Assembly (NCBI GenBank): GCA_036386415.1
Contig: DASVVT010000088.1
Coordinates: 1-64,000, forward strand
DNA: 64,000 nt
Source: Pyrinomonadaceae bacterium
GTDB taxonomy: Bacteria; Acidobacteriota; Blastocatellia; Pyrinomonadales; Pyrinomonadaceae
Direction: 5' to 3'
Shown here: in pieces, positions 5,761 through 63,212 of the stretch
Numbering within the stretch: the stretch's first letter is position 1
Layout: every line of letters starts with the position of its first letter
Translations under genes and position numbers: made by a program
Notes under the pieces: model-generated
What the model saw: the letters and a program-made list of their open reading frames with translations, nothing else
What the model was told of the DNA's origin: nothing
Databases searched by the model: none

Positions 5761-6333
5761 ATGAGACGAAAACTTTTCACCCGACGCCTTAGCCTGTTGA
5801 TCATCGCCGCTCTGCTCATCGTCCCCGCAAATTTCACGGCCAGTCCAACGCTACCTCCACTGCAACCGAACATCGGAATAAACGGCTTCTTCGCGGCGGA
5901 CAAGGCGCAGCGCGGGCGCACGGTTCAAGCGGCGGTGGTGATGGATATTCCAGAAGGCTTTCACGTCAACTCCAATAAGCCGCTCGGCAAATATGCCATC
6001 GCCACGGTTCTTAAGATCGAAGCGCCGGGCGGCATCAAAGTCGGGCCGGTCATCTATCCGCGCTCGATGTTGCGCAGCTTCAGTTTTTCGCAGGAGAGAT
6101 TGGCGGTTTACGAAGGACGCGCCGTGATGCGCTTCAACGTCACCATCCCGGCAGGCTTTGAGCCGGGCGTGATCGAGCTGCGCGCCAGCGTCAGATACCA
6201 GAGCTGCTCAAATGATGTCTGCTTTCAACCCGCTACACGCAACGTCACCATGCCGATAGCCGTCGTCGGCGCTAATGAATCTGTGAAGCGCATCAACGGT
6301 CAGTTCTTCGGAGGAGGAAGACGGAGGAGGTAG
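5761..6333 (+). CDS. Secreted protein resembling the N-terminal (alpha) domain of thiol:disulfide interchange protein DsbD
   Basis: Signal peptide present. Ig-like region with a YQSCSNDVCFQP Cys pair typical of DsbD-N/DsbC-type PF11412 domains. The stop codon TAG (6331-6333) is the first triplet of repeat element A. Confidence 0.45.
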   Translation: MRRKLFTRRLSLLIIAALLIVPANFTASPTLPPLQPNIGINGFFAADKAQRGRTVQAAVVMDIPEGFHVNSNKPLGKYAIATVLKIEAPGGIKVGPVIYPRSMLRSFSFSQERLAVYEGRAVMRFNVTIPAGFEPGVIELRASVRYQSCSNDVCFQPATRNVTMPIAVVGANESVKRINGQFFGGGRRRR

Positions 6334-6478
6334 ACAGTAGACAGTAGTCAGTAGTCAGTAGTCAGTAGATAAACCGAGTGCCTGTTACGCTCTCAATTAT
6401 GATTCATAATGAGCCGTATCAACCGAGTCAACCGATTTTCTGTTCTACTGGCTACTGACTACTGTCTACTGTCTACTG
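6331..6478. repeat. AGTAGTC-heptamer hairpin element, copy A (loop module in reverse orientation)
   Basis: Left arm TAGACAGTAGACAGTAGTCAGTAGTCAGTAGTCAGTAG (6331-6368) pairs with right arm CTACTGGCTACTGACTACTGTCTACTGTCTACTG (6445-6478). The 76-nt loop contains, on the minus strand, AGAAAATCGGTTGACTCGGTTGATACGGCTCAT. Confidence 0.9.
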
Positions 6479-7390
6479 CTTTCCAATCACTGCAAGCAAT
6501 CGACCCGTGCGACCGTAGACGCTCTTTTCGCGACGGTAGGAGAAGAAGAGGTCTGTCCGGCACATCGTGCAGAGCGGTGCGATATGGATGGCCTCTGCCG
6601 GAACGCCCCCTGCAATCAACTGATTGCGGTTCGCTCTTTGAAGATCAATGCGCGCGTGCCCGCCCTGTGTCGGCGTGAACAACTCGTCTGCGTCGTTGAA
6701 GCGCTCGTGGAAAGCTTGGACGACTTCGCCGCCGACTTCATAGCAGCACGCGCCCGCCGCCGGGCCGATAGCGGCGCACACATCCTGCGCGCTTGTGCCA
6801 TACTTCTCGCTCATACGTTCGAGCGTGCGTGTGATGATGGAAGAGAGCGTGCCGCGCCACCCGGCATGGACGGCTGCCACCGCGCCCTTCTTCATGTCGC
6901 CCAGTAGCACAGGTACGCAATCGGCTGTTTTGATGCCGAGCAGAATGTTCGGCCTATCGGTCGTCAGAGCATCGCAATGCTCCGTGTCGTTGCGTGCGTC
7001 GTCGCGGTCTTGAACGACGCGCACGTCTGCGCTGTGCACCTGCCAGCAGGCCGTGAGCATCCAGTCGCCTTCCAGGAGCTTGAGAAAGCGACGACGGTTC
7101 TCGTATATATTCTCGGCAGCGTCCTCGTTAAAGCCTGCGAGGTTGAGCGCATCCTGCGGCATGGGGCTACAGCCGCCCAGTCGCGTCGAAAAAGCGTTGG
7201 TAAAACCATGACGCTCAAGCGGCTCGCACACCAGCGCGCGCACGCTTGATTGCTCGCGCCAGAAGAATCCGGCGCGCTTTAACTCTGCATCATCCGTGAT
7301 CATTTCAATCGGTATAGACATGATCGAAGTCCGTCGCGTACGCGAAGTCATCTCGCGCACGCCGCGTTTCGTCGAGCGCGTTTTCACCAT
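6473..7390 (-). CDS. pgeF: Peptidoglycan editing factor PgeF / YfiH (DUF152 laccase-domain purine nucleoside phosphorylase)
   Basis: HAGWRG and CxxC...H motifs of the YfiH family. The true start is probably an internal Met near 7320 (MSIPIEM), because the listed start overlaps acpS. The stop codon lies in the right arm of repeat A. Confidence 0.8.
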   Translation of the reverse strand: MVKTRSTKRGVREMTSRTRRTSIMSIPIEMITDDAELKRAGFFWREQSSVRALVCEPLERHGFTNAFSTRLGGCSPMPQDALNLAGFNEDAAENIYENRRRFLKLLEGDWMLTACWQVHSADVRVVQDRDDARNDTEHCDALTTDRPNILLGIKTADCVPVLLGDMKKGAVAAVHAGWRGTLSSIITRTLERMSEKYGTSAQDVCAAIGPAAGACCYEVGGEVVQAFHERFNDADELFTPTQGGHARIDLQRANRNQLIAGGVPAEAIHIAPLCTMCRTDLFFSYRREKSVYGRTGRLLAVIGKQ

Positions 7391-11246: not shown

Positions 11247-11261
11247 GCTTTGCACAAAAAT

Positions 11262-11414: not shown

Positions 11415-11603
11415 GTGGCCGAAACCAAACTCCCGATTGGAATGGTCAAGCTAGACGGATGCAGATGCAGGTGTGGGCACGAATGGATACCGCGCGTCAA
11501 AGGGGAAAGACCTGCTAATTGCCCTCAGTGTAAAGCTTCAAAGTGGGACAAGCCGAAAGCTTTCAGCCGAAACAAATCAGCTAACAAGAGGGAAGGCGCG
11601 TAA
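11415..11603 (+). CDS. Small zinc-ribbon protein (CxCxC...CPQC) with lysine-rich tail; candidate controller/partner of the downstream RM enzyme
   Basis: 62 aa, motif GCRCRCGHEW...CPQCKASKW. Its TAA stop overlaps the ATG of the next gene (TAATGG at 11601-11605), so the two are translationally coupled. Low-GC codon usage. Confidence 0.5.
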   Translation: MAETKLPIGMVKLDGCRCRCGHEWIPRVKGERPANCPQCKASKWDKPKAFSRNKSANKREGA

Positions 11604-14296
11604 TGGCTCGGTCAACTAAGAAGAGGACGGGAAAGGGTCGCCCTGTAAATAAATACTGCTCGCTGTCCGCGTTGCATAACGAGAGTGACGTAGAGCAGTT
11701 TTTTGTTATGCCACTTCTGACCGATCTAGGTTATGGGCCAGAGTATTTAGAAACTAAGGCGACAGTAACTCAGGTAAAGATAGGAAAGGGGAAGGGAAAG
11801 AAATCCTATATACCAGATTATCTTGCGTATATCAGCACGGAAAAAGAAAAACCTGTACTTATTATAGATGCCAAACATCCCAATCATTCAGCCGAAGAGG
11901 GAGTCAACGATGCACAGCTTTATGCTTCAGTAATTCGCAGGAAGATGGCCGAACCTAAGCCAGAGCAGTATTGTATTGGCGTAAACGGGCATAAATTGAT
12001 ACTGAAGCATTATGATAGTGATGCGTCGATTTACGAATTATCATTCCAAGATTTCAAGGATGACAATCTACTTTTTACCGCTTTCAAACAAGCAATCAAC
12101 CGTGAATCTCTAACTCGTAAACAGAAATTAAAAGAAAAGGAACCGAAAAGCGATTTCGAGTTCCGAACGGTCTCACCGGTTGAACTGCCCGCCATTTTTG
12201 AAGCGTGTCACCGAGCGATCTGGAAAACAGAAAAGCGTAGCCCCGCATCGGCCTTTTATGAATTTGCAAAAGTCATGTTCGTAAAGATTGATGAAGACAA
12301 ACGGTTACATGAACATCTTATCTCAACCAGCCACGATTTTTCATCCGGCAAAGTTCCCAAAGGGGCTGTGCGATTCTCTGTCCATTGGATTGAAGAGATG
12401 GAAGAAGAAACGGATACAGATGATCCAATTAACACTATTCTGTTTGCGCGACTGGCTAAAAATTTAGAAGAACAAATTGCAAACAAAGAGAAGAAACGTA
12501 TTTTCGAGCCAGGTGAGCTAATCAACCTCGCCCCATCTACTATCAAAGATGCAGTAAGATTTTTAGAACACTTAGACCTGTATGCCGTAGATGAAGACCT
12601 TAACGGACGACTCTTCGAGACGTTTTTAACTGCAACTATGCGAGGTGAAGATTTGGGCCAATTCTTCACTCCGCGCTCTGTCGTAAAGTTCATGGTGAAG
12701 TTGGCTAACCTTCAAGCCGCACCGCTAAAAGCGATGGATATGGTCTTAGATGGTTGCTGCGGTACGGGCGGCTTTTTGATTGAGGCGATGGCTGATATGA
12801 GTCACAGCGTGTCAAGCAATCGGGCAATCACAACGAAAGAACAAGAGACACTTCACCGACAATTAAGAACCGAGAATTTATGGGGCATTGATGCTGGTAA
12901 AGACCCTTTGATGGCTCGTATTGCCCGCCTAAACATGCTCCTACACAAAGATGGCGGGAGTCGCATTTACTATGCAGACGCTTTAGACAAACAGTTACGG
13001 ATAGAGTCAGGGTTGCCACTTCAAACACGCCAAGAGATTGACGAACTCCGGTCGAACATAGTAACCGGCGATACACGGTTTTCCTGTGTCCTGAGCAACC
13101 CGCCATTCTCGATGACTTATGAAAGGAAGAAACCAAACGAGAAAGCAATATTAGATGATTACGAATTATCGGTTGATGAAAAGGGAAAGCCAAGAACGTC
13201 ACTACGTTCTTCCGTAATGTTCTTGGAAAGATATTGGGACTTACTAACGGACGATGGCCGCCTCATTACCATTATGGACGAAAGCGTCCTCAATACGCTC
13301 ACGTCCAAACCATTCAGGGAATACCTGCTAGAAAAGTTTATCATCAAGGGTGTTATCGCGCTTCCCAAAAACACTTTTGTCAAGGCGCAGACCGCAGTTA
13401 AGACTTCCGTACTCTTTCTGCGAAAGAAGACCGATCCCGACGAACGCCAACCGGATATATTCATGGCGATTTGCCGGAATGTCGGGCACAGTGACTCTGG
13501 AAAGGAAAGGCCGCACCTCAACGAACTTCCTAATATCCTAAAGGCATTTCGCGTGTTTCAGGAAAAGGGGTCTGTAAAATCTTCAGATCAAGTATTCACC
13601 GTTCCTGACTTGCTGCCGAACAACCCAACTCTGCGTATTGACGCGCATTACTTTAATCCAAAGTATTTCTCTACGATGAAAGCCCTAGATAAAATGGCCT
13701 CAGATAGAGGATGGAAAATTGATACTCTCCAAGACCTGCTAAGGGAAAGCAAGACAGCACTTGCTGGTGGAGCAACCCCGCGAGGCGCATTGTATCCAGA
13801 TGACGGCCCAAAATTCATTCGTGTCCAGAACGTAAAGCCAAACAGATTAGATTGGGACTCAGACGATGCTTGTATTGACACGCGAACACATACGGTAACT
13901 CTAAAGAGGTCTCAGTTAAAAGAAGGTGATGTTGTTCTTACCATTACCGGCAGTTATGGGATTGCCGCAGTTGTTCCGGCAGGATTCGGAGAGGCAAACA
14001 TCAATCAGCATTCCGTTAAGATCGAAGTCGGAGACAAGATCATACCGGAGTACCTTAGCGTCTTTCTAAATTCCAATTTATGCAGACCTCAGTTTGAGAG
14101 GGCAGTAACAGGGTCAAGCAGGCTGGCTTTAGATTACACTTCAATCCGCAATCTACGCATTCTCTATCCAGAGGACAAAGACGAACAACGTAGAATTGCG
14201 AACACCATAATGAAGCAGCTAGAGGCAGTTTCAAATCTGAGGCGTGATGCCACCGCTTTAGATAAAGCGATGGGCGAAGTTCTAACTAACCTTTAG
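11603..14296 (+). CDS. Single-chain restriction-modification enzyme: N-terminal HsdR_N-type PD-(D/E)xK nuclease-like domain, gamma-class N6-adenine DNA methyltransferase (HsdM-like), C-terminal HsdS-like target-recognition domain
   Basis: N-terminus ESDVEQFFVMPLLTDLGYG...IPDY...LIIDAK (PD...D-x-K). MTase motif I region DLGQFFTPRSVV...VLDGCCGTGGFL, motif IV NPPFS. C-terminal TRD resembles an HsdS half (…VVLTITGSYGIAAV…SSRLALDYTSIRNLRILYP). ~42-48% GC against ~63% in flanking genes. Confidence 0.8.
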   Translation: MARSTKKRTGKGRPVNKYCSLSALHNESDVEQFFVMPLLTDLGYGPEYLETKATVTQVKIGKGKGKKSYIPDYLAYISTEKEKPVLIIDAKHPNHSAEEGVNDAQLYASVIRRKMAEPKPEQYCIGVNGHKLILKHYDSDASIYELSFQDFKDDNLLFTAFKQAINRESLTRKQKLKEKEPKSDFEFRTVSPVELPAIFEACHRAIWKTEKRSPASAFYEFAKVMFVKIDEDKRLHEHLISTSHDFSSGKVPKGAVRFSVHWIEEMEEETDTDDPINTILFARLAKNLEEQIANKEKKRIFEPGELINLAPSTIKDAVRFLEHLDLYAVDEDLNGRLFETFLTATMRGEDLGQFFTPRSVVKFMVKLANLQAAPLKAMDMVLDGCCGTGGFLIEAMADMSHSVSSNRAITTKEQETLHRQLRTENLWGIDAGKDPLMARIARLNMLLHKDGGSRIYYADALDKQLRIESGLPLQTRQEIDELRSNIVTGDTRFSCVLSNPPFSMTYERKKPNEKAILDDYELSVDEKGKPRTSLRSSVMFLERYWDLLTDDGRLITIMDESVLNTLTSKPFREYLLEKFIIKGVIALPKNTFVKAQTAVKTSVLFLRKKTDPDERQPDIFMAICRNVGHSDSGKERPHLNELPNILKAFRVFQEKGSVKSSDQVFTVPDLLPNNPTLRIDAHYFNPKYFSTMKALDKMASDRGWKIDTLQDLLRESKTALAGGATPRGALYPDDGPKFIRVQNVKPNRLDWDSDDACIDTRTHTVTLKRSQLKEGDVVLTITGSYGIAAVVPAGFGEANINQHSVKIEVGDKIIPEYLSVFLNSNLCRPQFERAVTGSSRLALDYTSIRNLRILYPEDKDEQRRIANTIMKQLEAVSNLRRDATALDKAMGEVLTNL

Positions 14297-15300: not shown

Positions 15301-15392
15301 AGATGTTAGATGTCAGATGCCAGATGTTAGATGTCGGCTCGCGGTCATAGACTCACATCTAACATCTGGCATCTGACATCTGCTTTTTACAC
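15301..15392. terminator. Hairpin built from AGATGTY heptamers (5 units per arm) followed by a T5 run; intergenic terminator-like element
   Basis: AGATGTTAGATGTCAGATGCCAGATGTTAGATGTC -loop- (C)ACATCTAACATCTGGCATCTGACATCTG CTTTTT. Lies between the SurA-like and patatin genes. Confidence 0.7.
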
Positions 15393-19796: not shown

Positions 19797-19857
19797 GGCG
19801 GCAAGCGTGCGCCGACGACTTTTGAAGATGAGGCCCTTGGGTATCGCGTGCATGAAT

Positions 19858-19990
19858 AAGTAGACAGTAGACAGTAGCCAGTAGTCAGTAGAAAAGAACA
19901 TCCGTTGATGCTATTCAATCATAGACTTCAGCGACAGCGTTCAATGCGCGGAGCGCCTACTGACTACTGTCTACTGGCTACTGACTACTG
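19858..19990. repeat. AGTAGTC-heptamer hairpin element, copy B
   Basis: Arms AAGTAGACAGTAGACAGTAGCCAGTAGTCAGTAG and CTACTGACTACTGTCTACTGGCTACTGACTACTG. Loop AAAAGAACATCCGTTGATGCTATTC… is a degenerate version of the conserved module. Confidence 0.9.
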
Positions 19991-19994
19991 CTTT

Positions 19995-38075: not shown

Positions 38076-39893
38076 ATGAACCCTTCAAGATTGGCTGACA
38101 ACAAGAGTGGCGGAAAAAGTTTTCGGTACGCCATGATGCATGTCTTCGTGCTCCTCATCTCAATCGCATGTCTCGCCAGCCGCGCCAGCGCGCAATCGCC
38201 CGCCAACACCTCGCCGCAGCCGGGTAGCGGTCTTGACGCTACAGCTAATGCACAGACTGGCACGCAAGGGCGTTCGGTCTTGCGTGGGCGCGTCGTCTAC
38301 GAAGAGAGCGGGCGACCTTTGAGCGACACGTCTGTTGCAATCTTCAGGATGACTCAACCGCATCAGGGCTACGGCGCGATGACCGATGCGCGCGGCGAAT
38401 TTAAGGTGGAGAATCTGCCTGCGGGCAAGTATGCAGTCATGGCCGACGGCCCCGACATTATGGAAGCAGGATTCCTACTTCAGTCTTCGGAGAGCACTAC
38501 TGAAAGACCAATCGTTGAGCTTGACGGAACGAGCGCGGCTTCAGTGCAGGTTCGCGTCCGGCGCGGCGGCGCGATCACAGGTCAGGTCACACGCGCCGAC
38601 GGCAGCCCCGCCGTCGATGCCTTGATTATGCTCATGATTAAAAGGGACGGTCGCATGCTCCCGTTCAAGCGTCGCAACGTGCGTACAGATAAGCAGGGCT
38701 TTTATCGCTTCGGCGGTTTGCCGACCGGCGACTACATAGTTAGCGCAGACGAGTCGTATGAAGAAGTGCAGGCTGATGAAACGCCACGGGACACCAGCTA
38801 CGGAACACTGGTCGGCACTCTCTACCCCGGCACGACCAAAATCAGCGACGCCACGACCGTCCACGTTCAGGAAGGCGGAGAAACGAGCGGCATTAACATC
38901 ACACTCATCAAGCGTGCGACCCACAGAGTCTACGGCACGATCCGCACGCTGCGCGGCGGACTCCCGCGCGGGGAGGCCAGCATCTCCATCCGCGAGAAGG
39001 ATGAGACGCGCAACCTGTCTGCGCTCGAGCAGATAAAGCCGGTTGATGCCGAGGGCAGATGGTGGTTCGACGGTGTGCCTGACGGCACGTATATCTTAAA
39101 CGTCATCCCCAGTGGCAAGCGTCCAGCCGGTTCCGTAGATACGCTGGAGCACGCACAACTTCGCGAGGAGCTTGTCTACCCGTTCCTCTATAAACGTCAG
39201 GAAGTGACGGTGGCGGGTGCTGATCTCAAAGACCTTGTCATAGAGCTATCCGAGGGCGCGAGCGTTTCCGGGACTATCGAGACGGAAAACGGCCAGCCTC
39301 TCCCGCCGGATATAAGCATCGGTGCGCAAGCGGACTTTGCAGTTTCTGCTGCGGCTCGCGTCCGGCCCGACAGAACCTTCAAGCTTCAGGGCATACCGGC
39401 AGGAAACGTTTACCCCTACATCTATACCACTTCGTTCGGCGAGTCTTCGATGAAGGTGATGTTTGACGAGTATTACGTGAAGTCGATCTACGTGGGCGGC
39501 ATAGAACTACAGGGCGAGCCGCTCAAGGTTGAAGAGGGAGCGGAGATTAAAGGCGTGCGCATGGTGATCTCGCGCGAGGTGGCAACGGTGACGGGACATG
39601 TGCGCTCAGCAAAAGATGGCACACCCCAGCGCGGAATCAACGTCGTGCTGCTGCCCACAGACCCCGCACGCCAGCGAGCCGTCAAAGGGCTGCCCTTTGG
39701 ATTCACAAACGCGAAGGGAGCTTTTAGCGCCAGCGGCCCGCCCGGCGAATATTTTGTGGTGGCCTTTGGGGAGAGCGACCTGCCTGTCACCGATGAAAAG
39801 ATCAAAGCGCTCGCCGCCGTCGCCCCGCGCGTTCGGCTTCAACCGAATGAGCGCAAGACCGTAGACCTCACCAGGCAAGAAAGTAAGAAATGA
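38076..39893 (+). CDS. Secreted carboxypeptidase-regulatory-like-domain repeat protein (tandem paralog)
   Basis: Same module order as 36177..38021 (RGRVVYEESGRPL…, ITGQVTRADGSPAVDALIML…). The TGA stop lies inside the left arm of the hairpin at 39889. Confidence 0.65.
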   Translation: MNPSRLADNKSGGKSFRYAMMHVFVLLISIACLASRASAQSPANTSPQPGSGLDATANAQTGTQGRSVLRGRVVYEESGRPLSDTSVAIFRMTQPHQGYGAMTDARGEFKVENLPAGKYAVMADGPDIMEAGFLLQSSESTTERPIVELDGTSAASVQVRVRRGGAITGQVTRADGSPAVDALIMLMIKRDGRMLPFKRRNVRTDKQGFYRFGGLPTGDYIVSADESYEEVQADETPRDTSYGTLVGTLYPGTTKISDATTVHVQEGGETSGINITLIKRATHRVYGTIRTLRGGLPRGEASISIREKDETRNLSALEQIKPVDAEGRWWFDGVPDGTYILNVIPSGKRPAGSVDTLEHAQLREELVYPFLYKRQEVTVAGADLKDLVIELSEGASVSGTIETENGQPLPPDISIGAQADFAVSAAARVRPDRTFKLQGIPAGNVYPYIYTTSFGESSMKVMFDEYYVKSIYVGGIELQGEPLKVEEGAEIKGVRMVISREVATVTGHVRSAKDGTPQRGINVVLLPTDPARQRAVKGLPFGFTNAKGAFSASGPPGEYFVVAFGESDLPVTDEKIKALAAVAPRVRLQPNERKTVDLTRQESKK

Positions 39894-39985
39894 TGAATGC
39901 GGAATGCGGAATGATGAATTAAGAACAGAACCGAAAGGAACGGCTTCCTTCTTTTCATTCATCATTCCGCATTCCGCATTCATCA
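39889..39985. repeat. Perfect 31-bp hairpin built from AATGMKG heptamers (singleton)
   Basis: AATGATGAATGCGGAATGCGGAATGATGAAT -35 nt loop- ATTCATCATTCCGCATTCCGCATTCATCATT. Confidence 0.85.
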
Positions 39986-40162
39986 TTTGCTTTTTCGTTT
40001 GATCTGGCTACAATGATGTGGTCGCAAACGGCATGGGCCATACTCACCGTCTACGCCAATTATCAATCAAAGTTTCCCCCGGCCCTTTTGCCCTCCCGGA
40101 AATTTTCGCTCTCCCGCCTGTTTCCCCGTAAGCGTTTGGTTGTGGCTTGAGAAATCTGCGAG

Positions 40163-40612
40163 GTGTCTAGCGAAATGGCTGAACTGTTGCGCGCACTCGC
40201 CGCACGGCTGCACAGGTACATAGGTGATCGTCGTCGCGCCCCACGACACGGGGTGCGCCTGGCCGTCACTCTCTGGCTGCCTGACGGCCCGCTCAATTCA
40301 AACGGCGTGCGCCGACGCTCGCCCGTGCTTGAGGGCTTCACACGCGATGTGAGCGCAACCGGGCTGGCGCTCATCCTGCCCGCCATTCGCATCGGCGAAC
40401 ACTACCTGATCGGCGAAGGCCGCAACCTGCGCCTCCGGCTTGAACTTCCGACGGGGGCGATCCAGATGGATGTCACTCCCGTGCGCTACGAGCGTCTTGA
40501 AGAGGAGCAGGCGGAAAAGGGCTACCTCATCGGCGTCCTGATCGCGGAGATGAGCGACGAAGATCGCCAACGCTACAACGAAGGAATGAAAACAGTAGAC
40601 AGTAGCCAGTAG
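40163..40612 (+). CDS. PilZ-domain c-di-GMP-binding protein
   Basis: RRRAPRHGVRL (RxxxR) and DVSATGLAL (DxSxxG) PilZ motifs. The last 5 codons and the TAG stop lie in repeat C. Confidence 0.7.
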   Translation: MSSEMAELLRALAARLHRYIGDRRRAPRHGVRLAVTLWLPDGPLNSNGVRRRSPVLEGFTRDVSATGLALILPAIRIGEHYLIGEGRNLRLRLELPTGAIQMDVTPVRYERLEEEQAEKGYLIGVLIAEMSDEDRQRYNEGMKTVDSSQ

Positions 40613-40740
40613 TCAGTAGCCAGTAGAAAAGAAAATCGGTTGATGCGGTTGATACGGCTCATCTAACTTCATAGTAGGCAGCAAAGCTTGATGCCCTGCT
40701 TTCGTTTCTACTGGCTACTGACTACTGGCTACTGTCTACT
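40594..40740. repeat. AGTAGTC-heptamer hairpin element, copy C (perfect 33-bp stem)
   Basis: AGTAGACAGTAGCCAGTAGTCAGTAGCCAGTAG / exact reverse complement at 40707-40740. Loop AAAAGAAAATCGGTTGATGCGGTTGATACGGCTCATCT…. Confidence 0.95.
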
Positions 40741-41389
40741 CCTCCTCAAACCCGAGCCAGCCGAAGACTTCCGGCACGTGAAAGTTGGGCTGCGCGGTGC
40801 GCGTCGGTTGCCAGGCGAGGTAGCCGCGCTCCGGGCCTGCGCCGACGCAGCGAAAGAGGTTTACGCGCCAGCGCTCCCCAGCCTGCGGCGCATGCGGAAA
40901 AGCCCTCCAGGGCACGCGCATGGCAATCGTCACACGGGCTTCAAGGATACGCGCGGCGGCTGACATTCCTGAACGGTATTGCCAGTCTGTCTCGCGCGCT
41001 GCTCGTTTCTGCCGGATCGCCAGGTCCAGCCATTCGCCCGTCGGCGCGGCCTCGAACTCGAAATAACGCTCAGGCTCACGCGCCTCCACGGCGACGAAGA
41101 TTTCGCACACGTCGCGCTCCCAGAGGCCGACTGTTTTCTCTTCTCTCTGCGGCGCGGCGCTCATCACGAGAGGTTCATCCTGACGACAGTCGAAGCGCAC
41201 ACACAGCGCCGTCTCCGACCACAGGATGCGCACCTTTGCCTGACGTCCGGCAGGGGCTTCCTCGCCAGACCAGTATCGCTTGATGTGAACAGGAGACGCC
41301 CCCTCCCATTCGTCGTGATCCAGATCGGAGGCCATCACATCCGCGCTCGCACGATGCGCGACGATCAAATCGGAAGTCTCAGTTACCAT
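40736..41389 (-). CDS. Hypothetical protein (possibly a CBM9-like carbohydrate-binding fold) bracketed by repeat copies C and D
   Basis: 217-aa ORF with normal codon usage and several conserved Trp. The stop lies in the right arm of repeat C and the start is 5 nt from repeat D. Confidence 0.45.
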   Translation of the reverse strand: MVTETSDLIVAHRASADVMASDLDHDEWEGASPVHIKRYWSGEEAPAGRQAKVRILWSETALCVRFDCRQDEPLVMSAAPQREEKTVGLWERDVCEIFVAVEAREPERYFEFEAAPTGEWLDLAIRQKRAARETDWQYRSGMSAAARILEARVTIAMRVPWRAFPHAPQAGERWRVNLFRCVGAGPERGYLAWQPTRTAQPNFHVPEVFGWLGFEEE

Positions 41390-41393: not shown

Positions 41394-41535
41394 AGTAGAC
41401 AGTAGTCGGTAGACAGCAGACAGTAGAAAAGAAAATCTGTTGACGCGGTTGATGCTGCTCATCTCAATCATCGTAGGCAACGTAGTAGATACTCTGTTTT
41501 ATCTACTGCCTACTGACTACTGACTACTGTCTACT
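41394..41535. repeat. AGTAGTC-heptamer hairpin element, copy D
   Basis: Arms AGTAGACAGTAGTCGGTAGACAGCAGACAGTAG / CTACTGCCTACTGACTACTGACTACTGTCTACT (imperfect). Loop AAAAGAAAATCTGTTGACGCGGTTGATGCTGCTCATCT…. Confidence 0.9.
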
Positions 41536-42086
41536 TCTTCCATTGTTCCAGCGCATCCATGCAGGTCTTGAGCAGGCGTGCCGGATCGTCATTATGAAAG
41601 ACGCTCGCACCAGTTTTCTTGGGCAACGTTTGAAGAAGACGGGCGACTTCATCGGCGACACCTCCCGTCCCCGTCAGGCAGCCGATGATGCGACCCTCGT
41701 CGTGGGCGATGGTGAATTCGTTGAGTGCGCCCATCGAGCCTCCGATGACGATCACTATATCGCATGACCGCACGAGCACGACGTTGCGTCCCTTGAGCCC
41801 GAAGCCCGTGTAGATGATGAGGTCGCAGGCGTCCACCGGAAGCCCGTAAGCGCCAATGTGCTCGTGCTCGTTCGCGGCAGGCGAGACGCCGACGTGGAGC
41901 CCGCCCGCTTCATGCGCGGCGCGCCCCGCGATGTCAGGCAATCCCGTCGTCGCACCCGTCAGCAGCACCAGACCGCGCGCGGCGCACTGTCGTCCGAGCG
42001 CTTCCGATTTCTCACGCACAGCAACAGCTACGCCCCCTGCTGGCAGCGTATCGTCTGCCGAACCCATGATGCCGACCTTAATCTTC
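41531..42086 (-). CDS. TIGR00725/LOG-like Rossmann-fold protein (lysine-decarboxylase-like family)
   Basis: MKIKVGIMGSA… N-terminus, GGSMGALNEF (compare the LOG PGGxGTxxE motif). The ORF-track start at 42145 is probably a spurious extension. The stop lies in the right arm of repeat D. Confidence 0.6.
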
Positions 42087-42145
42087 ATGAAAAGCAGGAG
42101 ACAGAATACAGAATACAGGAGACAGAATAAAACCGTAGGGGCCAT

Positions 42146-42241
42146 TTAAACGCAGAGGACGCAAAGGTATTTCGCAAAGGAGGCCAAAGAGTAAATCCTC
42201 TGCGTACTCTGCGTAGAACCTTTGCGCCCTCTGCGTTTAAA
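42146..42241. repeat. CGCAAAG-type hairpin element, copy G3
   Basis: TTTAAACGCAGAGGACGCAAAGGTATTTCGCAAAGG … CCTCTGCGTACTCTGCGTAGAACCTTTGCGCCCTCTGCGTTTAAA. The TAA stop of the MFS gene lies in the terminal TTTAAA. Confidence 0.85.
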
Positions 42242-44287: not shown

Positions 44288-46804
44288 GTGCGAGTGAAAT
44301 TCATAGAGATGTTTGATTACAATCGCGCGGCGCGGGCTTACTGGTCGGCGATGGTTATCGCCGGTGCGCTCGTCGGCGCATGGGGTGTGTCTCAAGCTCT
44401 CTCTTTCACATCCGTGCAGTGGGCGCAGTTTCTTGCGCTCTTGAGCCTCGTCGTCGTCACCGCTTCACACCCGATTCGCATCCCGAACACGAAAGCGAGC
44501 GTCACGGCAGGCGACACGTTCACTTTTCTGAGCGTCCTGCTGTTGGGCGTGCCCTCAGGCATCCTGCTCGGCATCGTCGATTCCTTCGTCAGCTCGCACC
44601 GGACGACGCGGCGTGCGACGAGCTGGCTGGCCGCGCCCGCGATGATGGCGCTGACGGTGCTCGTTGCGGGCAACGCTTTTTACCTGACCCTCGCCGCGAC
44701 GGCGCACAGCACGGACTCTCCGCTTCGCACCTCGGACGTGCATCTGGATGACCTGATCGTGCCGCTGGCCGTGATGACGCTCCTACAGTATTTCCTGAAC
44801 GGTATGACTGTCGCCACCCTGTGCGCTTTGAAGGGGCGGCGCTCGATCTGGAAGTTCTGGCGCGACGGCTACCTCTGGACATCCTGGACATTTTTTGGGG
44901 CGGCGATTGCAGCCGCCTTGATCTACTCAGCCATTTCGAGATTTGGTTTCGTCTACGTGCTGCTGAGTGCGCCCATCATCGCTGCGACCTACGCGACCTA
45001 TCGCATCTACTTCGAGCGGATGAACGAGAAGACGCGCGAGGCGAAAGAGTTGAGCCGCCTGCACCTGGCGACGGTCGAAGCGCTGGCGACCGCCATTGAC
45101 GCCAAGGATCAGACGACCCATTGCCATGTCCGTCGCGTGCAAATCTACGCCGCCGGGATGGGCAGAGTCTTTGGCCTCTCCGACAGCGAGATCGAGGCGC
45201 TCAAGGCGGGCGCGCTCCTGCACGACATCGGCAAGCTGGCCGTGCCCGATCACATTCTGAACAAGCCAGGCCGCCTCTCCGCTGCCGAGTTCGAGAAGAT
45301 GAAGGTGCACACCACGGTCGGCGCCGAGATTCTCAGGCGCGTCAACTTCCCTTATCCGGTCGTGCCCGTCGTGCGCCATCATCACGAGCAATGGGACGGG
45401 CAGGGCTATCCGGACGGACTGCGTGGCGAAGAGATTCCGATCACGGCGCGCATCCTCTCGGTCGTCGATTGCTTCGACTCCGTGCGCGAAGATCGCCCTT
45501 ACCGTCGCGGCATGACGACGGAGGAGGCGAGCGCGCTGCTGCTCAGAGGCGCTGGAAAACATTTCGACCCCAAGGTCGTCGAGCAGTTTTTCAAGCACCT
45601 GCCGCGTTTTGAATCTGAGATTGCGGCGCTCGGCCTAGACCGGCACGGCCTGACGGATGAGGAGTGTGAGCCGCGCGCGCTGACCGAGGCTGAAGTCGCG
45701 CAAGGGAGAGACGAAGCATCGACGGTCGCTTATCTAGACCAGATCAAGAATGCGCATCGTGAAGTCTACGCGCTCTACGAGATTGCGCGCACCTTCGGCT
45801 CATCCTTAGACATACAGGATACGGTCACGATTCTCGTCAACAAGGTCAGGCACATCGTCCCCTTCGATACCTGCGTCGTTTACCTCTATGACGAATTGAA
45901 AGGCTATGCGACCGCCGCGCACGTGGCCGGAAAGAACGCCGAGGCCTTGCGGGATCGCTGCATCGCGCCCGGCGAAGGCGTCACTGGTTTCGCGCTCGCC
46001 AATCGCCGCGCCATTAACCGGATCGACCCCAGCCTTGACTTCACGGGCGTTGAGCTTGCGCCCGGCAACCCTTATCGCTCGATGGCGGCGCTCCCCCTCG
46101 TCAAAGATGAACGACTGCTCGGCACGCTCTCCATCTATTCGATGGAGATGAATGATTACACGGACGACCACATGCGTCTCCTGGACACTGTGGCGCGGCT
46201 CGCTTCGGATGCGCTCGCCAACGCCGTCCAGCACGCGCAGGCCGAGTCACACGCCCTCACAGACCCGCTCACGGGACTTCCCAACGCTCGCTGCATGTAC
46301 ATGCGCTTCGAGCAGGAGGCGTCACGCGCGCGCCGCTCGGGTCGCCCCTTCCAGGTCATCATGCTCGATCTGGACGACTTCAAGCAGGTCAACGATACCT
46401 TCGGCCACAAGGTCGGCGATCAGATGCTGCGCGAAGTGGCGCGCCTGCTCCACTCGCAGCTACGCGAGTACGACTTCCTCGCGCGTTATGCGGGCGACGA
46501 GTTCGTCGCCATCGTGCAGGAAGTCATCGGCGAGCAGGTCGAAGAACTGCGCGAGCGTATCGAAGAGACCATCTCGAAGTTCACGCTTCGCGTCCGCGCA
46601 GAGCACCACGCGCGCGTCGGCATCAGCGTCGGAGCCGCGACCTACGGCACGGACGGCGAAACCCTCGACCAGCTCCTGATCGCCGCCGACGAAGCCATGT
46701 ACAGCGCCAAGTCCGTGCACAAACAGCGACGCCTAGAAGCGGAGACAAAGGTCGAATCCCCCGTCGACATCTCGGATAATCTCGCCTCTACAGCGATAAA
46801 TTAA
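44288..46804 (+). CDS. Membrane-anchored c-di-GMP signalling protein: multi-TM sensor domain, HD-GYP phosphodiesterase, GAF domain, GGDEF domain (AGDEF variant)
   Basis: HD-GYP motifs LLHDIGK, HHEQWDGQGYPDGL. GAF region (LYEIARTFGSSLD…). GGDEF domain with RYAGDEFVAIV. Confidence 0.85.
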   Translation: MRVKFIEMFDYNRAARAYWSAMVIAGALVGAWGVSQALSFTSVQWAQFLALLSLVVVTASHPIRIPNTKASVTAGDTFTFLSVLLLGVPSGILLGIVDSFVSSHRTTRRATSWLAAPAMMALTVLVAGNAFYLTLAATAHSTDSPLRTSDVHLDDLIVPLAVMTLLQYFLNGMTVATLCALKGRRSIWKFWRDGYLWTSWTFFGAAIAAALIYSAISRFGFVYVLLSAPIIAATYATYRIYFERMNEKTREAKELSRLHLATVEALATAIDAKDQTTHCHVRRVQIYAAGMGRVFGLSDSEIEALKAGALLHDIGKLAVPDHILNKPGRLSAAEFEKMKVHTTVGAEILRRVNFPYPVVPVVRHHHEQWDGQGYPDGLRGEEIPITARILSVVDCFDSVREDRPYRRGMTTEEASALLLRGAGKHFDPKVVEQFFKHLPRFESEIAALGLDRHGLTDEECEPRALTEAEVAQGRDEASTVAYLDQIKNAHREVYALYEIARTFGSSLDIQDTVTILVNKVRHIVPFDTCVVYLYDELKGYATAAHVAGKNAEALRDRCIAPGEGVTGFALANRRAINRIDPSLDFTGVELAPGNPYRSMAALPLVKDERLLGTLSIYSMEMNDYTDDHMRLLDTVARLASDALANAVQHAQAESHALTDPLTGLPNARCMYMRFEQEASRARRSGRPFQVIMLDLDDFKQVNDTFGHKVGDQMLREVARLLHSQLREYDFLARYAGDEFVAIVQEVIGEQVEELRERIEETISKFTLRVRAEHHARVGISVGAATYGTDGETLDQLLIAADEAMYSAKSVHKQRRLEAETKVESPVDISDNLASTAIN

Positions 46805-46851
46805 CGTGAGTTCGACATAAGCGGCACAGCCGCTTATGTCGAACTCACGTT
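46803..46851. repeat. Minimal copy of the AACGTGAGTTCGAC-TIR element (23-bp perfect stem, 4-nt loop) overlapping the stop codon of the HD-GYP gene
   Basis: AACGTGAGTTCGACATAAGCGGC ACAG GCCGCTTATGTCGAACTCACGTT. The gene's TAA stop is at 46802-46804. Confidence 0.85.
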
Positions 46852-49074: not shown

Positions 49075-50496
49075 TTGAGCGACATGCAAGCGACACGACT
49101 CCTCGTTGCCGAAGACGAAGCCAATCTGCGCCTCGTGATTCAAAAGGAATTGCAGCGCCTGGGATTTCGTGTGGATGTTGTGCCGGACGGCGAGGCCGCC
49201 TTGCGCCGCCTCGAAGAGGGCAATGTCGATGTCCTCTTAAGCGACATCAACATGCCGCGCATTGACGGGATGGAGCTGCTCAAACGCGTGAGAGAGCGTC
49301 CCAACCCGCCCGAAGTGATCTTGCTCACAGGCCACGCCACGGTCGAGACCGCTATTGAAGCGATGAAGCTCGGCGCGTATGACTATCTGACCAAGCCGTA
49401 TCACATCACGGAGCTGGACGCGCTCGTCAAACAGGCTGCGGAAAAGCGTCGGCTGCGCGTTGACAACCAGCGCCTGCGTCAGCAACTGGCTCGCCAGTCG
49501 GAGATGCCGGAGATCGTCTCCGTCTCCGACCTCATGCGCGAGGCGCTACGCCTTGTCGAGCGCGTCGCGCCTTCGGACGCCTCCGTCTTAATCACGGGCG
49601 AATCCGGAACCGGCAAGGAGCTGATCGCGCACGCCATTCACAGACTCTCGACTCGCGCCGATGCATCCTTCATTGATCTCAACTGCGCCGCGTTTCAGGA
49701 GTCGCTTCTCGAATCAGAGCTTTTCGGTTACGAGGCGGGCGCATTCTCCGGCGCGAAGGGTCGCAAGCTCGGACTGATAGAACTGGCCGACGGCGGCACG
49801 CTCTTTCTGGACGAAGTGACGGAGCTGCCCACGCAGCTTCAATCGAAGCTGCTGCGCGCCATTGAGACGCGCACCTTCTACCGTGTCGGCGGCGTGCGCA
49901 AAGTCGAAGTCGATGTCCGCATCGTCGCGGCCACGAATCGCAATCTCGATCAGGTGGTCACGGATGGAACGTTCCGCTCCGACCTGCTCTATCGCATCAA
50001 CGGATTCCAGATAGACCTCTCGCCCCTGCGCGAAAGACCCGAAGACATAGAACCCCTGGCGCGCCATCTGCTCAAGCAGCTTTGTGGCGCGAATACTCCC
50101 GACCTGACACCCGAAGCGCTCGAAGCCCTGCGCGCCTATAGCTGGCCTGGCAACGTGCGCCAGTTGCGCAACTGCCTTGAGCGCGCCGTGCTGCTGGCAA
50201 ACGACTCGCTCATCACCCTTAACGAGCTACCGCCGGAGGTCGCGCGCCAGGCGGGCGCACCGCTGCCGATCATGACCGCTATGTCGGGCAGCACGGCGGA
50301 AGCGGGCAGCACCAGCGCACAAAGTTCTTCCGGCTCCGCTTCGCCCGCATCGCTGCGCGAAGTCGAGCGCCAGCAGATTCTCGCCGCGCTCGAACAAACG
50401 GGCTGGCATCGCGGCAAGACAGCCGAAATCCTCGGCATCTCGCCCTCCACGCTCTATCGCCGCCTGCGTGACTATAATCTTGAGCGTCGTAATTAA
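49075..50496 (+). CDS. Sigma-54-dependent response regulator (NtrC family: REC, AAA+ sigma-54 activator, Fis-type HTH)
   Basis: Walker A GESGTGKE, GAFSGA motif, ESELFGYEAGAF, C-terminal HTH (…KTAEILGISPSTLYRRL). Confidence 0.9.
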   Translation: MSDMQATRLLVAEDEANLRLVIQKELQRLGFRVDVVPDGEAALRRLEEGNVDVLLSDINMPRIDGMELLKRVRERPNPPEVILLTGHATVETAIEAMKLGAYDYLTKPYHITELDALVKQAAEKRRLRVDNQRLRQQLARQSEMPEIVSVSDLMREALRLVERVAPSDASVLITGESGTGKELIAHAIHRLSTRADASFIDLNCAAFQESLLESELFGYEAGAFSGAKGRKLGLIELADGGTLFLDEVTELPTQLQSKLLRAIETRTFYRVGGVRKVEVDVRIVAATNRNLDQVVTDGTFRSDLLYRINGFQIDLSPLRERPEDIEPLARHLLKQLCGANTPDLTPEALEALRAYSWPGNVRQLRNCLERAVLLANDSLITLNELPPEVARQAGAPLPIMTAMSGSTAEAGSTSAQSSSGSASPASLREVERQQILAALEQTGWHRGKTAEILGISPSTLYRRLRDYNLERRN

Positions 50497-50580
50497 ACGC
50501 AAAGTACGCAAAGGAAAGGCGCGCAAAGGTCGCAAAGAATCAACCCCTTTGCGATAACCTTTGCGTCCTTTGCGTTTAAA
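50493..50580. repeat. CGCAAAG-type hairpin element, copy G5
   Basis: TTAAACGCAAAGTACGCAAAGGAAAGGCGCGCAAAGGTCGCAAAG … CCCCTTTGCGATAACCTTTGCGTCCTTTGCGTTTAAA. The TAA stop of the regulator lies in the terminal TTAAAC. Confidence 0.85.
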
Positions 50581-50649
50581 TCTTCCCTTAAAAAAGCATA
50601 ACTTGACAACCATACCACGCAGGTTTGAATATACTCCGAATCGAATCAT

Positions 50650-53563: not shown

Positions 53564-54673
53564 GTGACATTTCTTTCTCTCCAAAACATCTCGAAGCGAT
53601 ACGACGCGACCGTGGCCGTCGCCGATCTTTCGCTCGCCATCGAGCGGGGCGAGTTCTTCGGGCTGCTCGGCCCGTCCGGGTGCGGCAAGACGACTACGCT
53701 GCGTATGATCGCAGGCCTGGAGACGCCGGACAGAGGGGTCATACAGTTCGATGGTCGGGACATCACGCGGCTCTCGCCCGAGCGGCGCGGCTTCGGCATG
53801 GTCTTTCAAAACTACGCGCTCTTCCCTCACCTAGACGTCTTTGAGAACGTCGCCTTCGGCCTGCGCGCGCGCCGTCGCCCGAAGGCGGAGATCACGGAGC
53901 GCGTCAAGAGCGCCCTCCAACTGGTGCAGCTTCCAGGCTACGAGCGGCGTCGCACGGGCGAGCTTTCGGGCGGCCAGCAACAGAGAGTCGCCATCGCGCG
54001 CGCCATCAGTATTGAGCCTGCGCTCCTGCTCTTTGACGAGCCACTCTCGAACCTGGACGTAGCCCTGCGCGAAGAGACGCGCGGCGAATTGCGCGAGCTG
54101 GTGGCACGCCTGAACCTGACCGCCGTTTACGTCACGCACGACCAGGAGGAAGCCTTCGCGCTCTGCGACCGCATCTGCGTGATGAGCGAAGGCCGCAGCC
54201 TGCAAACAGGAACGCCGCGCGAGCTTTACGAACGTCCCGCAGAGGCGCTGGTCGCACGCTTTCTCGGACGCAACAATCTCATCAAAGCCATGCGCCTGAG
54301 CGCCAGCCACGTCCGCAGCGCAACCTTCAAGACCCTCGAAGGCGGCCACACGCTCAACGTCTTCGTCCGGAAGGAGGATTTAAGCCCTCTCAACTCCGCC
54401 GCGACGCTCGCCATACGCCCGGAGTATCTACGTCTCAGTAAGACAGAAATAGTGGAAGATAACACTCTCCAAGCGACCGTTCGTGAGATCAACTTCACGG
54501 GCGCAACGACAAGCATCAAGCTGGACGCGGGCGGTCTCGCCCTCGAAGCCCTCGTCATTCAGGCGGACGGCCTCTCCGTCGGCGACGCCTGCATGGTCAT
54601 GCTGCCCCCTCAACACATCACGATCTTAGGGATGAACAAAGGGATGAGGGATGAACGAAGGGATGAGGGATGA
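53564..54673 (+). CDS. ABC transporter ATP-binding protein (FbpC/PotA family with C-terminal TOBE domain)
   Basis: Walker A GPSGCGKTT, Q-loop, signature LSGGQQQRVAIARA, Walker B LLLFDEPLS, H-loop. Confidence 0.9.
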   Translation: MTFLSLQNISKRYDATVAVADLSLAIERGEFFGLLGPSGCGKTTTLRMIAGLETPDRGVIQFDGRDITRLSPERRGFGMVFQNYALFPHLDVFENVAFGLRARRRPKAEITERVKSALQLVQLPGYERRRTGELSGGQQQRVAIARAISIEPALLLFDEPLSNLDVALREETRGELRELVARLNLTAVYVTHDQEEAFALCDRICVMSEGRSLQTGTPRELYERPAEALVARFLGRNNLIKAMRLSASHVRSATFKTLEGGHTLNVFVRKEDLSPLNSAATLAIRPEYLRLSKTEIVEDNTLQATVREINFTGATTSIKLDAGGLALEALVIQADGLSVGDACMVMLPPQHITILGMNKGMRDERRDEG

Positions 54674-56636: not shown

Positions 56637-56638
56637 TA

Positions 56639-63194: not shown

Positions 63195-63212
63195 ATGTGC
63201 TCCTTTGGAAGA

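Follow-up and report, generated by a model that had tools for sequence, protein, structure and literature searches.

Heptamer-built hairpins supply stop codons and C-terminal tails to neighbouring genes in a Pyrinomonadaceae genome

The sequence analyzed here, referred to as the window, is a 64-kb stretch of the genome (59% GC) of a soil bacterium from Pyrinomonadaceae (Acidobacteriota), and the subject is a set of repeat hairpins located at the 3' ends of its genes. A scan for periodicity of 7 nucleotides (nt), combined with repeat-finding tools, revealed about 17 hairpin elements in the 64 kb, or about 1 per 3.6 kb. About 40% of the gene 3' ends in the window carry a palindromic repeat; the spacers are short, and the repeats are non-coding. 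Stop coordinates were checked on the sequence, and gene identities were taken from Pfam. The loci of relatives used for comparison are 8-22-kb fragments, designated as L117 and L119 to L124.

The window contains a DsbD_N gene (5761..6333, +), which is followed by the convergent gene pgeF (6473..7390, -). The spacer between them is occupied by a hairpin designated as A1. Its left arm consists of two GTAGACA units followed by three GTAGTCA units, and its right arm is the reverse complement of the left arm. The DsbD_N gene stops at TAG 6331-6333, the first TAG of the left arm, and pgeF stops at TAG 6473-6475 in the right arm. In the predicted fold the two TAGs are base-paired to one another where the stem begins, at its foot, and thus one palindrome gives stops to both genes.

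The initial annotation treated such hairpins as a single family. They are instead of three unrelated kinds: heptamer-arm hairpins, the G family, and a palindrome with terminal inverted repeats (TIRs). About 11 heptamer-arm hairpins are present in the window, and each of their arms is composed of 3-6 tandem 7-nt units. They belong to the families CAGTAGN, AGGGATG, AATGATG/AATGCGG (AATGNNG), AGATGNN, and ATTGCGG. The CAGTAGN hairpins, A1 to A6, begin at 6330, 19859, 40592, 41394, 56506, and 63211, and the others begin at 15301 (AGATGNN), 39888 (AATGATG/AATGCGG), 54626 (AGGGATG), and 35095 and 59648 (ATTGCGG). Members of the G family have the ends TTTAAACGCAAAGGACGCAAAGG and are found at 26441, 42144, 43612, 50491, and 61478. 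The TIR palindrome, with the ends AACGTGAGTTCGAC, is at 46803-46851, and a longer second copy is at 7794-7965. All hairpins that were folded are very stable (-44 to -86 kcal/mol, z-scores -4.95 to -14.6), and no Rfam family matched either strand of the whole window at the gathering threshold. The heptamer-arm hairpins that adjoin the genes discussed below are as follows.

6330..6478 (149 nt): A1 hairpin with CAGTAGN arms; minimum free energy -74.7 kcal/mol, z -11.8 against shuffled sequences.
15301..15382: AGATGNN hairpin between the SurA_N-like and patatin genes (both -); the same family is at the same site in L117.
19859..19991: A2 hairpin between the TamB and Omp85 genes (-).
39888..39988: AATGATG/AATGCGG hairpin followed by a T-rich tract; holds the CarboxypepD_reg stop.
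40592..40741: A3 hairpin, -86.4 kcal/mol.
41394..41537: A4 hairpin; holds the SLOG stop, and the CBM9 ATG (41389) is 4 nt from its other arm.
54626..54858: AGGGATG hairpin; holds the ABC ATPase stop and the start of the permease open reading frame (ORF).
56499..56637: A5 hairpin; its degenerate outer unit (AGGAGACGGTAAGTCAGTAG) holds the permease stop, TAA 56504-06.
59646..59781, strand +: ATTGCGG hairpin with stop-free units, translated as the 44-codon PIG-L tail.
63211..63352: A6 hairpin; holds the HAD stop in its right arm.

Seventeen gene 3' ends adjoin a hairpin in the window, and the tally is unselected, covering all of them. Twelve stop inside the hairpin, 3 at 2-7 nt outside it, and 2 about 45 nt away; that is, 15 of the 17 are inside an arm or within 7 nt of one. 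Six of the 10 TAG stops in the window sit in CAGTAGN arms. PilZ reads 6 codons (TVDSSQ) into the left arm of A3 and ends at TAG 40610-12 in the third unit, while the CBM9 gene (40736..41389, -) enters A3 from the other side and ends at TAG 40736-38, the first outward TAG of the right arm. The gene previously labelled LOG-like belongs to SLOG cluster 4 (LDcluster4) according to Pfam, and its stop, TAG 41531-33, is the first outward TAG of its A4 arm. HAD ends at TAG 63340-42, in the second unit of the right arm of A6, with the tail NNRRQ. The CarboxypepD_reg gene (38076..39893) ends at TGA 39891-93 in the AATGATG arm. The ABC ATPase extends some 15 codons into the AGGGATG array (tail peptide GMRDERRDEG) as far as TGA 54671-73, and of its 369 residues the TOBE_2 domain reaches up to 355. 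PIG-L (57118..59781) was described as reading about 44 codons through the ATTGCGG element, and the number is exactly 44 (MRNADFGLRI...VWGFE; tail peptide MRNADFGLRIERFVISNLR...), with the TGA 59779-81 overlapping the LysE ATG. Two stops lie just outside an arm, TAA 15387-89 of SurA_N (5 nt from the AGATGNN arm) and TGA 19995-97 of TamB (4 nt from the A2 arm). The Pfam domains of PgeF, CBM9, HAD, HTH_8, TOBE_2, and the permease are complete to 0-14 residues before the stop. The nine stops that the initial annotation had placed inside arms or termini of repeats (DsbD_N, PgeF, PilZ, CBM9, SLOG, HAD, MFS, sigma-54, and "HD-GYP") were all found there, and the stops of CarboxypepD_reg, the ABC ATPase, and the permease are added to them here, as is a false extension of SLOG described below.

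The architecture of the arms is well suited to closing reading frames. Since 7 is not divisible by 3, tandem units present any stop triplet that they contain in every frame within 21 nt, and the inversion of the arms makes the stop-bearing strand face outward at either side of the hairpin. Read from the outside in, CAGTAGN units contain TAG, and AGGGATG, AATGATG, and AAGGATG units contain TGA; ATTGCGG, AATGCGG, and CAGGACT units contain no stop. An ORF abutting a stop-bearing heptamer hairpin is closed within 7 codons. The tails are accordingly 0-6 codons long for uninterrupted arrays of stop-bearing units, and otherwise about 15 codons (AGGGATG units broken by spacers), 44 codons (ATTGCGG), or 10 codons (CAGGACT, in a relative).

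An alternative explanation is that the stops and tails are ancestral coding sequence, and that their likeness to the repeats is coincidence or an annotation artefact. In that case, as the initial annotation pointed out, orthologs would share identical tails in genomes without the repeats. Sets of 120 homologs each of PgeF, SLOG, and PIG-L were compared, together with the DNA of four orthologous PgeF/DsbD_N pairs, and the tails differ. The best homologs of the three window proteins are from Pyrinomonadaceae; an exact-sequence look-up with the listed PgeF ORF, whose listed start is too long, gave no match. Tails are given below without the stop that ends them.

The 120 PgeF homologs share the core ...GRLMSVIG(K/R), after which the sequence varies: KQ in the window and its closest relatives, KQG or RQG, KQESGLRTQDSE-type, RC, RD, and others. 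The type of tail tracks the heptamer family downstream of the gene. The PgeF/DsbD_N spacer of L117 (86% identity) also contains a CAGTAGN hairpin, which provides both TAG stops as in the window and has other numbers of units and an unalignable loop. The spacer of L120 has a CAGGACT hairpin, through which PgeF reads 10 codons, and DsbD_N has its own TGA 5 nt outside. In L121 an AAGGATG hairpin is present, and PgeF and DsbD_N both end in (K/R)QG on CAA GGA TGA of the first unit. The spacer of L119 contains only two AGATGNT units, where AGA TGC TAG ends PgeF as RC, and shows no significant fold (z 0.18). Similarly, the DsbD_N core ends in ...N(I/F)F and is followed by GGGRRRR, GGGRRRK, nothing, GRKG, or GKQG across the orthologs.

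SLOG homologs have the conserved sequence ...CLEA(L/F)EQ and then varied tails, with TRRA (EQTRRA) as the commonest single tail. SLOG in L123 ends in EQTRRA, no hairpin follows it, and the next gene starts 3 nt after the stop. The tails WKK in the window and ERGQ in L122 each end on the first TAG of an A-type array. As for PIG-L, 117 of the 120 homologs do not have the 44-residue tail and end 0-15 residues after ...ANM(L/I)SYG(R/H). The tail of about 45 residues is confined to the window protein and the two homologs nearest to it (91% and 73% identity), and these three proteins agree in the arm-encoded parts and differ in the loop-encoded part.

Further comparisons were provided by L124 (91% identity in PIG-L), which is collinear with the window over 46800-64000. 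It also has the AGGGATG hairpin in a shorter form, and the ABC ATPase tail is LGMNKGTRDEG in L124 and LGMNKGMRDERRDEG in the window, the length varying with the number of units. HAD at A6 ends in NDGSR in L124, compared with NNRRQ in the window. At A5, the first TAG of the array ends the permease in L124 (AGG TAG ACAG); this TAG is lost in the window (AGG AGA CGG TAA GTCAGTAG). The CarboxypepD_reg gene of L122 ends with GGC AAG TAA in frame, whereas the AAGTAAG of the window is not in frame, and the gene continues there as far as the TGA in the arm. The comparisons of the A5 permease and of CarboxypepD_reg indicate that native or earlier stops were replaced by stops of the arrays.

Because the tails differ between orthologs and follow the local units, the stop and the last 1-44 codons of the genes ending in heptamer-arm hairpins are encoded by the repeats and are not ancestral. 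The C-termini of two other proteins, the HD_5-GAF-GGDEF protein and the sigma-54 regulator, are identical to those of relatives lacking the element, as ancestry would predict. The tails of PgeF, DsbD_N, SLOG, PIG-L, PilZ, HAD, and the ABC ATPase, which differ between orthologs and translate the local units, and the concentration of TAG stops in CAGTAGN arms make ancestral tails extremely improbable as a general explanation.

The takeover of stops could have proceeded as follows. An array just downstream of a gene would make the native stop redundant. The native stop might then be lost by point mutation, frameshift, or small deletion, and a stop of the array would take over.

The other two kinds of element behave differently. 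Miniature inverted-repeat transposable elements (MITEs) of the IS630/Tc1-mariner type duplicate TA at their target, and insertion into the TA of a stop codon regenerates the stop. Three MITE-like elements end genes in the window.

42144..42241: G3, TA-flanked and MITE-like, with the TIR AAC(G)CAAAGG; the TA flanks were read by eye; absent from L122.
46803..46851: TIR palindromic MITE of 49 nt with the TIR AACGTGAGTTCGAC...; fold z -14.6.
50494..50583: G5, with TA flanks at 50494-95 and 50582-83.

The gene labelled HD-GYP contains HD_5, GAF, and GGDEF domains according to Pfam, and its stop, TAA 46802-04, is at the left end of the TIR element. The site is empty in L124, where the end of the gene reads GCGATAAATTAAGGG. 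The filled site in the window reads GCGATAAATT, then the element AACGTGAG...CTCACGTT, then AAATT and AAGGGG. The element is flanked by a 5-bp duplication, AAATT (46798-46802 and 46852-46856), and the TAA is composed of the last T of the duplication and the first AA of the element. Thus, the TIR element was inserted into the native TAA and rebuilt it at the same position. The C-terminus (...AIN) is the same with and without the element; since the protein is unchanged, the element donated nothing. The combination of TIRs, a target duplication, and an empty site was found for this element only.

The sigma-54 regulator ends in ERRN both in the window (TAA) and in L124 (TAG), at the same codon. The TAA 50494-96, in the TTAAA end of G5, consists of the flanking TA and the first A of the element, and at the left edge of G5 the homology with L124 ends right after AATTA. 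TA flanks both ends, next to AAC(G)CAAAGG, in G1, G3, G4, and G5, four of the five copies. These observations support the view that a TA-duplicating MITE was inserted into the TA of the stop codon at G5. The MFS stop, TAA 42237-39, is inside the TTTAAA terminus of G3, and here as well the element appears to have been inserted with the stop rebuilt. The G family resembles the IS630/Tc1-mariner-type MITEs in its TIRs, TA flanks, length of about 100 nt, and lack of coding capacity; it differs in that no parent insertion sequence (IS) or transposase was found for it in the window and the fragments of relatives, and in that some copies are in 5' regions.

The initial annotation proposed that the elements donate stops and tails, and that their placement might reflect targeted insertion at stop codons. 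Donation is observed for the heptamer-arm hairpins, whose tails differ between orthologs, and not for the TIR element and G5, which leave the C-termini unchanged. Insertion into a stop codon is demonstrated by the empty site of the TIR element, but the preference would be for AT-rich targets rather than for stop codons as such. The TIR and G elements would target AT-rich sites, namely TA in TTAA or TTTAAA for the G family and the 5-bp AAATT for the TIR element. TAA stops may be among the few sites in a 59% GC genome that both offer an AT target and tolerate an insertion, and the scarcity of AT-rich targets would then account for MITEs landing in TAA stops. The stop would be rebuilt from the duplicated target and the first A or AA of the element, leaving the protein unchanged.

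Additional observations were made on these elements. The second AACGTGAGTTCGAC-ended MITE copy (7794-7965) has a 116-nt internal segment, and related-looking fragments, not aligned, are seen in L117 at 5990-6060. G-type arms also occur inside out, the left arm being CCTTTGCG...TTTAA and the right arm TTAAA...CGCAAAGG (window 32378-32440; L122 8900-8990). These copies are found in divergent or 5' regions, and the range of the G family thus extends beyond gene 3' ends. In L124, an unrelated hairpin is present about 14 nt further downstream of the sigma-54 regulator. The regulator is followed in L124 (3655-3745), where the window has G5, by an inverted repeat, TTCACCACCCAGACACAAAGGC / GCCTTCGTGTCTGGGTGGTGAA, that resembles by eye, without alignment, a further repeat family of the window, ATTCACCACCGCAGACACCGCAGG, found at 4360-4402 and 62593-62635.

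The best explanation of the window as a whole, and a probable one, thus combines stops and tails encoded by heptamer hairpins with the rebuilding of stops by AT-targeting MITEs. The association of heptamer arrays with stops was surveyed elsewhere, with (CAGTAGN)x4, which matched more than 116 species-representative genome contigs, in 116 unrelated genome contigs, and with (AGGGATG)x4 in 120 metagenome contigs. CAGTAGN arrays were found from many Pyrinomonadaceae, other Acidobacteriota, Microcoleus, Tychonema, Mesorhizobium, Planctomycetota, Bacteroidota, and Chloroflexota; no DNA orthologous to the window was detected by blastn in the 116 genome loci with arrays. Among the 76 CAGTAGN arrays with a credible same-strand upstream ORF, 57 have the stop in the array (30) or within 10 nt upstream of it (27), compared with 1 of 62 on the control side (Fisher 1e-20). 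The 30 in-array stops use the first TAG in 17 cases, the second in 3, the third in 9, and one further in, and the use of the first TAG is significant (p = 0.007). For AGGGATG arrays, the corresponding numbers are 29 of 57 and 1 of 31 (3e-6), and the array starts peak 2-3 nt after TGA, TAG, or TAA alike. An inverted or different heptamer array, sometimes complementary, is often present 40-100 nt downstream of the surveyed arrays. The heptamer arrays are therefore linked to stop codons non-randomly, in about 230 other contigs of many phyla.

Such a link could also be produced by a site-specific insertion mechanism which puts heptamer hairpins at, or immediately 3' of, stop codons. The pile-up of array starts 2-3 nt after any stop codon, and for CAGTAGN at the offset of +3 that corresponds to first-TAG use, is consistent with this mechanism. 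So is the presence of a CAGTAGN, CAGGACT, or AAGGATG hairpin in one and the same PgeF/DsbD_N spacer of different genomes, although the chance that one spacer is occupied repeatedly is not very small when about 40% of 3' ends carry a repeat. The TIR element, which is unrelated, also demonstrably entered a stop codon. The heptamer hairpins are old, since relatives of 73-91% protein identity carry them at the same sites, and all six A copies recur in these relatives wherever the fragments cover the site. A1 (inverted), A3, and A4 have a loop module of 33-37 nt (AAAGAAAATCGGTTGATGCGGTTGATACGGCTCAT) in common, and A2 and A6 have shorter matches of 15-20 nt. The module shared by A1, A3, and A4 indicates that whole elements were copied between sites at some time. 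The number and order of the units change between relatives, the encoded tails change along with them, and the loops diverge beyond alignment, while most orthologous hairpins stay significant (z -3.3 to -9.6).

Several observations weigh against the explanation preferred here. No recent insertion or insertion polymorphism of heptamer hairpins was seen among the four relatives, and no target duplication is present at any of the 12 A-family ends of the six CAGTAGN copies. For none of the families was a transposase, a REP-associated tyrosine transposase (RAYT), or a parent IS found in the 64-kb window and the fragments of relatives. Hairpin upkeep is not universal, as shown by the L119 spacer described above and by the decayed ATTGCGG hairpin of L124 (z -0.85). 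The pile-up at 2-3 nt is tighter than tolerance of insertions and deletion bias obviously predict, and the gene calls of the survey are heuristic (ORF length and GC content at third codon positions). For the G family, no clean empty site was found; a TA target duplication is thereby indistinguishable from a palindromic TTTAAA terminus, and G5 supports the insertion at its left boundary only.

The first three of these points also tell against site-specific insertion. A TA target duplication was considered for the CAGTAGN hairpins and rejected, as it needs an ancestral PgeF/DsbD_N overlap of about 70 nt, which is implausible and which no ortholog has. Regarding a candidate enzyme, class 3 Y1 proteins have been reported in Acidobacteria (PMC6006769). 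No Y1 transposase domain was found in the 20 window proteins scanned (about half of the genes) or in the Pfam lists of neighbouring genes, and the array-bearing loci contain no inverted array pairs 0.5-2 kb apart bracketing a transposase, only pairs of hairpin scale. Site-specific insertion is therefore judged unlikely. An origin of the arrays by local slippage at TAG stops was also rejected, because intergenic TAGs far outnumber stop TAGs and the shared loop module indicates copying.

The arms influence the annotation of 5' ends as well. Their inside-out strand is mostly stop-free, and as a result ORF finders push downstream genes backwards through the arm. Two false N-terminal extensions are present in the window.

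19854..19901, strand -: false N-terminal extension of Omp85 (MFFSTDYWLLSTVYLF), reading the stop-free inside-out strand of the right arm of A2.
42088..42145, strand -: false N-terminal extension of SLOG, reading a direct ACAGAAT/ACAGGAG heptamer array (42097-42131).

The start listed for Omp85 (19901) had already been suspected as an artefact of reading through A2. The true start is ATG 19851-19853. This ATG is conserved in L117, and an indel of 4 nt between it and the arm puts the extension out of frame there. The true SLOG start is MKIKVG at 42088; about 110 of the 120 homologs begin at or beside it, and about 7 have their own extensions.

The ACAGAAT/ACAGGAG array is direct and unpaired, is located about 9 nt upstream of the true SLOG start, and is conserved in L122 (4960-5000). 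It resembles the TAACTGA arrays found upstream of start codons.

The general claim of false N-terminal extensions fits Omp85 and SLOG and seems not to fit the junction of the ABC ATPase and the permease. There, the stretch from the hairpin to the conserved first transmembrane segment contains no ATG or GTG in either the window or L124. The sole canonical start candidate in that interval is TTG 54782 in the loop of the window, and it has no counterpart in L124. The permease frame is open through the loop and the right arm in both genomes, over 65 codons in the window and 27 codons in L124 (7680-7810). Because no later ATG or GTG is available and the frame is open in both genomes, the permease probably starts at the ATG 54677 of the AGGGATG array, with the leader peptide MRDEEKKAAGGK... 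This ATG is 3 nt after the ATPase TGA in the window and overlaps it as ATGA in L124, and a Shine-Dalgarno-like GAGGG is 7 nt upstream, within the array. Judging from these sequence features, the N-terminal extension through the hairpin is probably real coding sequence.

Junctions of this kind bear on a possible role of the hairpins in RNA. In the TamB/Omp85, SurA_N/patatin, and SLOG/CBM9 pairs, the stop and the start are 4-6 nt from opposite feet of the stem. The downstream genes, patatin, Omp85, and CBM9 (starts 15295, 19853, and 41389; 4-6 nt from the arm, 5 nt for the patatin ATG), have no Shine-Dalgarno sequence. Cyclophilin, at A6, starts at ATG 63194, 16 nt from the arm opposite to the one with the HAD stop, and has the Shine-Dalgarno sequence AAGGAG. 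The placement of stops and starts at the stem feet hints, speculatively, at translational coupling or processing by RNase III.

It is thus conceivable that the hairpins are functional RNA elements, namely terminators, 3'-end stabilizers, RNase III sites, or coupling devices, and that selection holds the foot of the stem at the stop, with the arms arising or being remodelled in place by 7-nt slippage and hairpin-templated repair. For repetitive extragenic palindromes (REPs) near stop codons, transcription and activity as RNA have been reported (PMC3733652). Consistent with such a function, the position of the hairpins is kept across genomes while loops and the number and order of units change, the operon stops and starts are arranged as described above with downstream genes lacking a Shine-Dalgarno sequence, and the AGGGATG array supplies a TGA, the GAGGG, and an ATG together. 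In the direction of transcription, a T-rich tract (GCTTTTTCGTTTG) comes after the AATGNNG hairpin, and in L122 the CarboxypepD_reg gene is followed by what appears, by eye and without folding, to be an ordinary GC-rich inverted repeat and T-rich sequence. The AATGNNG hairpin is, however, the only one with such a tract, and the operon-internal hairpins have none; intrinsic termination as the role of all the hairpins was rejected on this ground. Some orthologous hairpins have decayed while the genes are kept, the shared loop modules indicate copying between sites rather than a purely local origin, and no Rfam family matches. A functional-RNA origin of the placement is possible but on the unlikely side. 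Under the preferred combination of repeat-encoded and rebuilt stops, the heptamer hairpins may serve as stable stem-loops that protect or process 3' ends, or they may be tolerated selfish DNA.

A broader proposal is that heptamer-array hairpins are unrecognized gene-boundary elements shared across phyla, which would provide frame-independent punctuation, act in coupling or RNase III processing, and be installed or maintained by a dedicated mechanism. It is regarded as quite improbable. If it holds, an outward array would stop an ORF in any frame, and the AGGGATG type would offer GAGGG 7 nt before an ATG in every frame, with its TGA and ATG overlapping or standing 3 nt apart. The stem would bring the upstream stop beside the downstream start, and genes without a Shine-Dalgarno sequence would be translated by coupling or after cleavage by RNase III.

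The supply of stops by repeats has direct precedents, and what is new here is the hairpins built from heptamers. GTAG REPs are known to supply TAG stops (Di Nocera et al. 2013, PMC3733652). Like the present hairpins, GTAG REPs and REPINs (hairpins formed by paired REPs) are abundant extragenic palindromes between convergent or co-directional genes, mostly within 20 bp of 3' ends (PMC3733652; PMC3116915), and REPs at annotated N-termini often reflect mis-annotation. The window hairpins share with REPs the extragenic location, high copy number, and concentration at 3' ends. REPs have a conserved GTAG (or GTGG/CGTC) 0-2 nt from the hairpin foot; CAGTAGN arms begin with (A)GTAG at the outer foot, but in them GTAG also recurs every 7 nt within the stem. 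The window hairpins differ from REPs in that the arms are 3-6 tandem heptamers rather than a single imperfect palindrome of 20-40 nt, and in that the loops are long (20-100 nt) and variable. The arms are not palindromic themselves, as REP units are, and the whole element is one long hairpin. The AGGGATG, AGATGNN, AATGCGG, and ATTGCGG families have no GTAG.

Work by Liang, Rudd, and Deutscher in 2015 reportedly found that translation is lowered by REPs located within 15 nt of a stop, by way of stalled ribosomes and transfer-messenger RNA. The hairpins described here are similar in that a stable stem-loop starts within the ribosome footprint of the stop, and dissimilar in that the stop is often inside the stem.

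The second precedent is the direct arrays of the heptamer TAACTGA in Beggiatoaceae, Cyanobacteria, and Bacteroidetes, which overlap ORF ends (MacGregor 2015, PMC4679880). Heptamers are the most abundant long simple repeats in bacteria according to Mrazek 2007, as that article relates it (PMC4679880). The TAACTGA arrays likewise have 7-nt units, stops in three frames in one orientation with the other strand open, and indels in steps of 7 nt; they overlap the ends of upstream ORFs, are patchily distributed across phyla, and have no known vector. They are direct, have no predicted structure, and are mostly just upstream of start codons, whereas the elements described here are inverted array pairs that form very stable hairpins and are anchored at stop codons. 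The present arrays thus have the features of heptanucleotide repeat arrays, i.e., tandem 7-nt units, 7-nt length steps, and all-frame stops on one strand, with inverted pairing added. The STRR heptamers (short tandemly repeated repetitive sequences) of cyanobacteria are presumably comparable heptamer repeats. No description of the combination seen here, inverted heptamer-array hairpins of several families per genome in Acidobacteriota, was found in the literature.

A sizeable share of the annotated protein ends in Pyrinomonadaceae and other array-bearing genomes is likely to be derived from repeats. The C-termini of such proteins are not comparable between orthologs, and tails or leaders of 10-45 residues can be translated hairpin. 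Reading through the stop-free arm strand also leads to wrongly called start codons, and the elements should be masked in gene calling and in ortholog pipelines. With a frame-independent stop downstream, the native stop would be dispensable, and 3' ends could drift, shorten, or lengthen with slippage of the array. MITEs with AT-rich targets can reach the TAA stops of a GC-rich genome without harm to the protein. If the hairpins act in RNA processing or coupling, they would form a layer of regulation widespread in this major, little-studied soil phylum.

Other features of the window are as follows. The spacer 14296-14399 of a convergent gene pair contains an ordinary hairpin resembling a bidirectional terminator (TTTTTGTGCAAG...CTGCACAAAAA), and the two genes have native TAG stops; repeat hairpins are thus not present in every spacer. 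The region 36177-39893 contains two tandem CarboxypepD_reg paralogs with DNA stretches about 78-82% identical, and L122 has one gene there (7083-8885). An AT-rich tract at 11254-11384, with a periodicity of 13 nt, consists of 8 copies of TATATACAA-type units with overlapping inverted repeats. It is located about 220 nt upstream of the gene 11603..14296 and could be regulatory or iteron-like.

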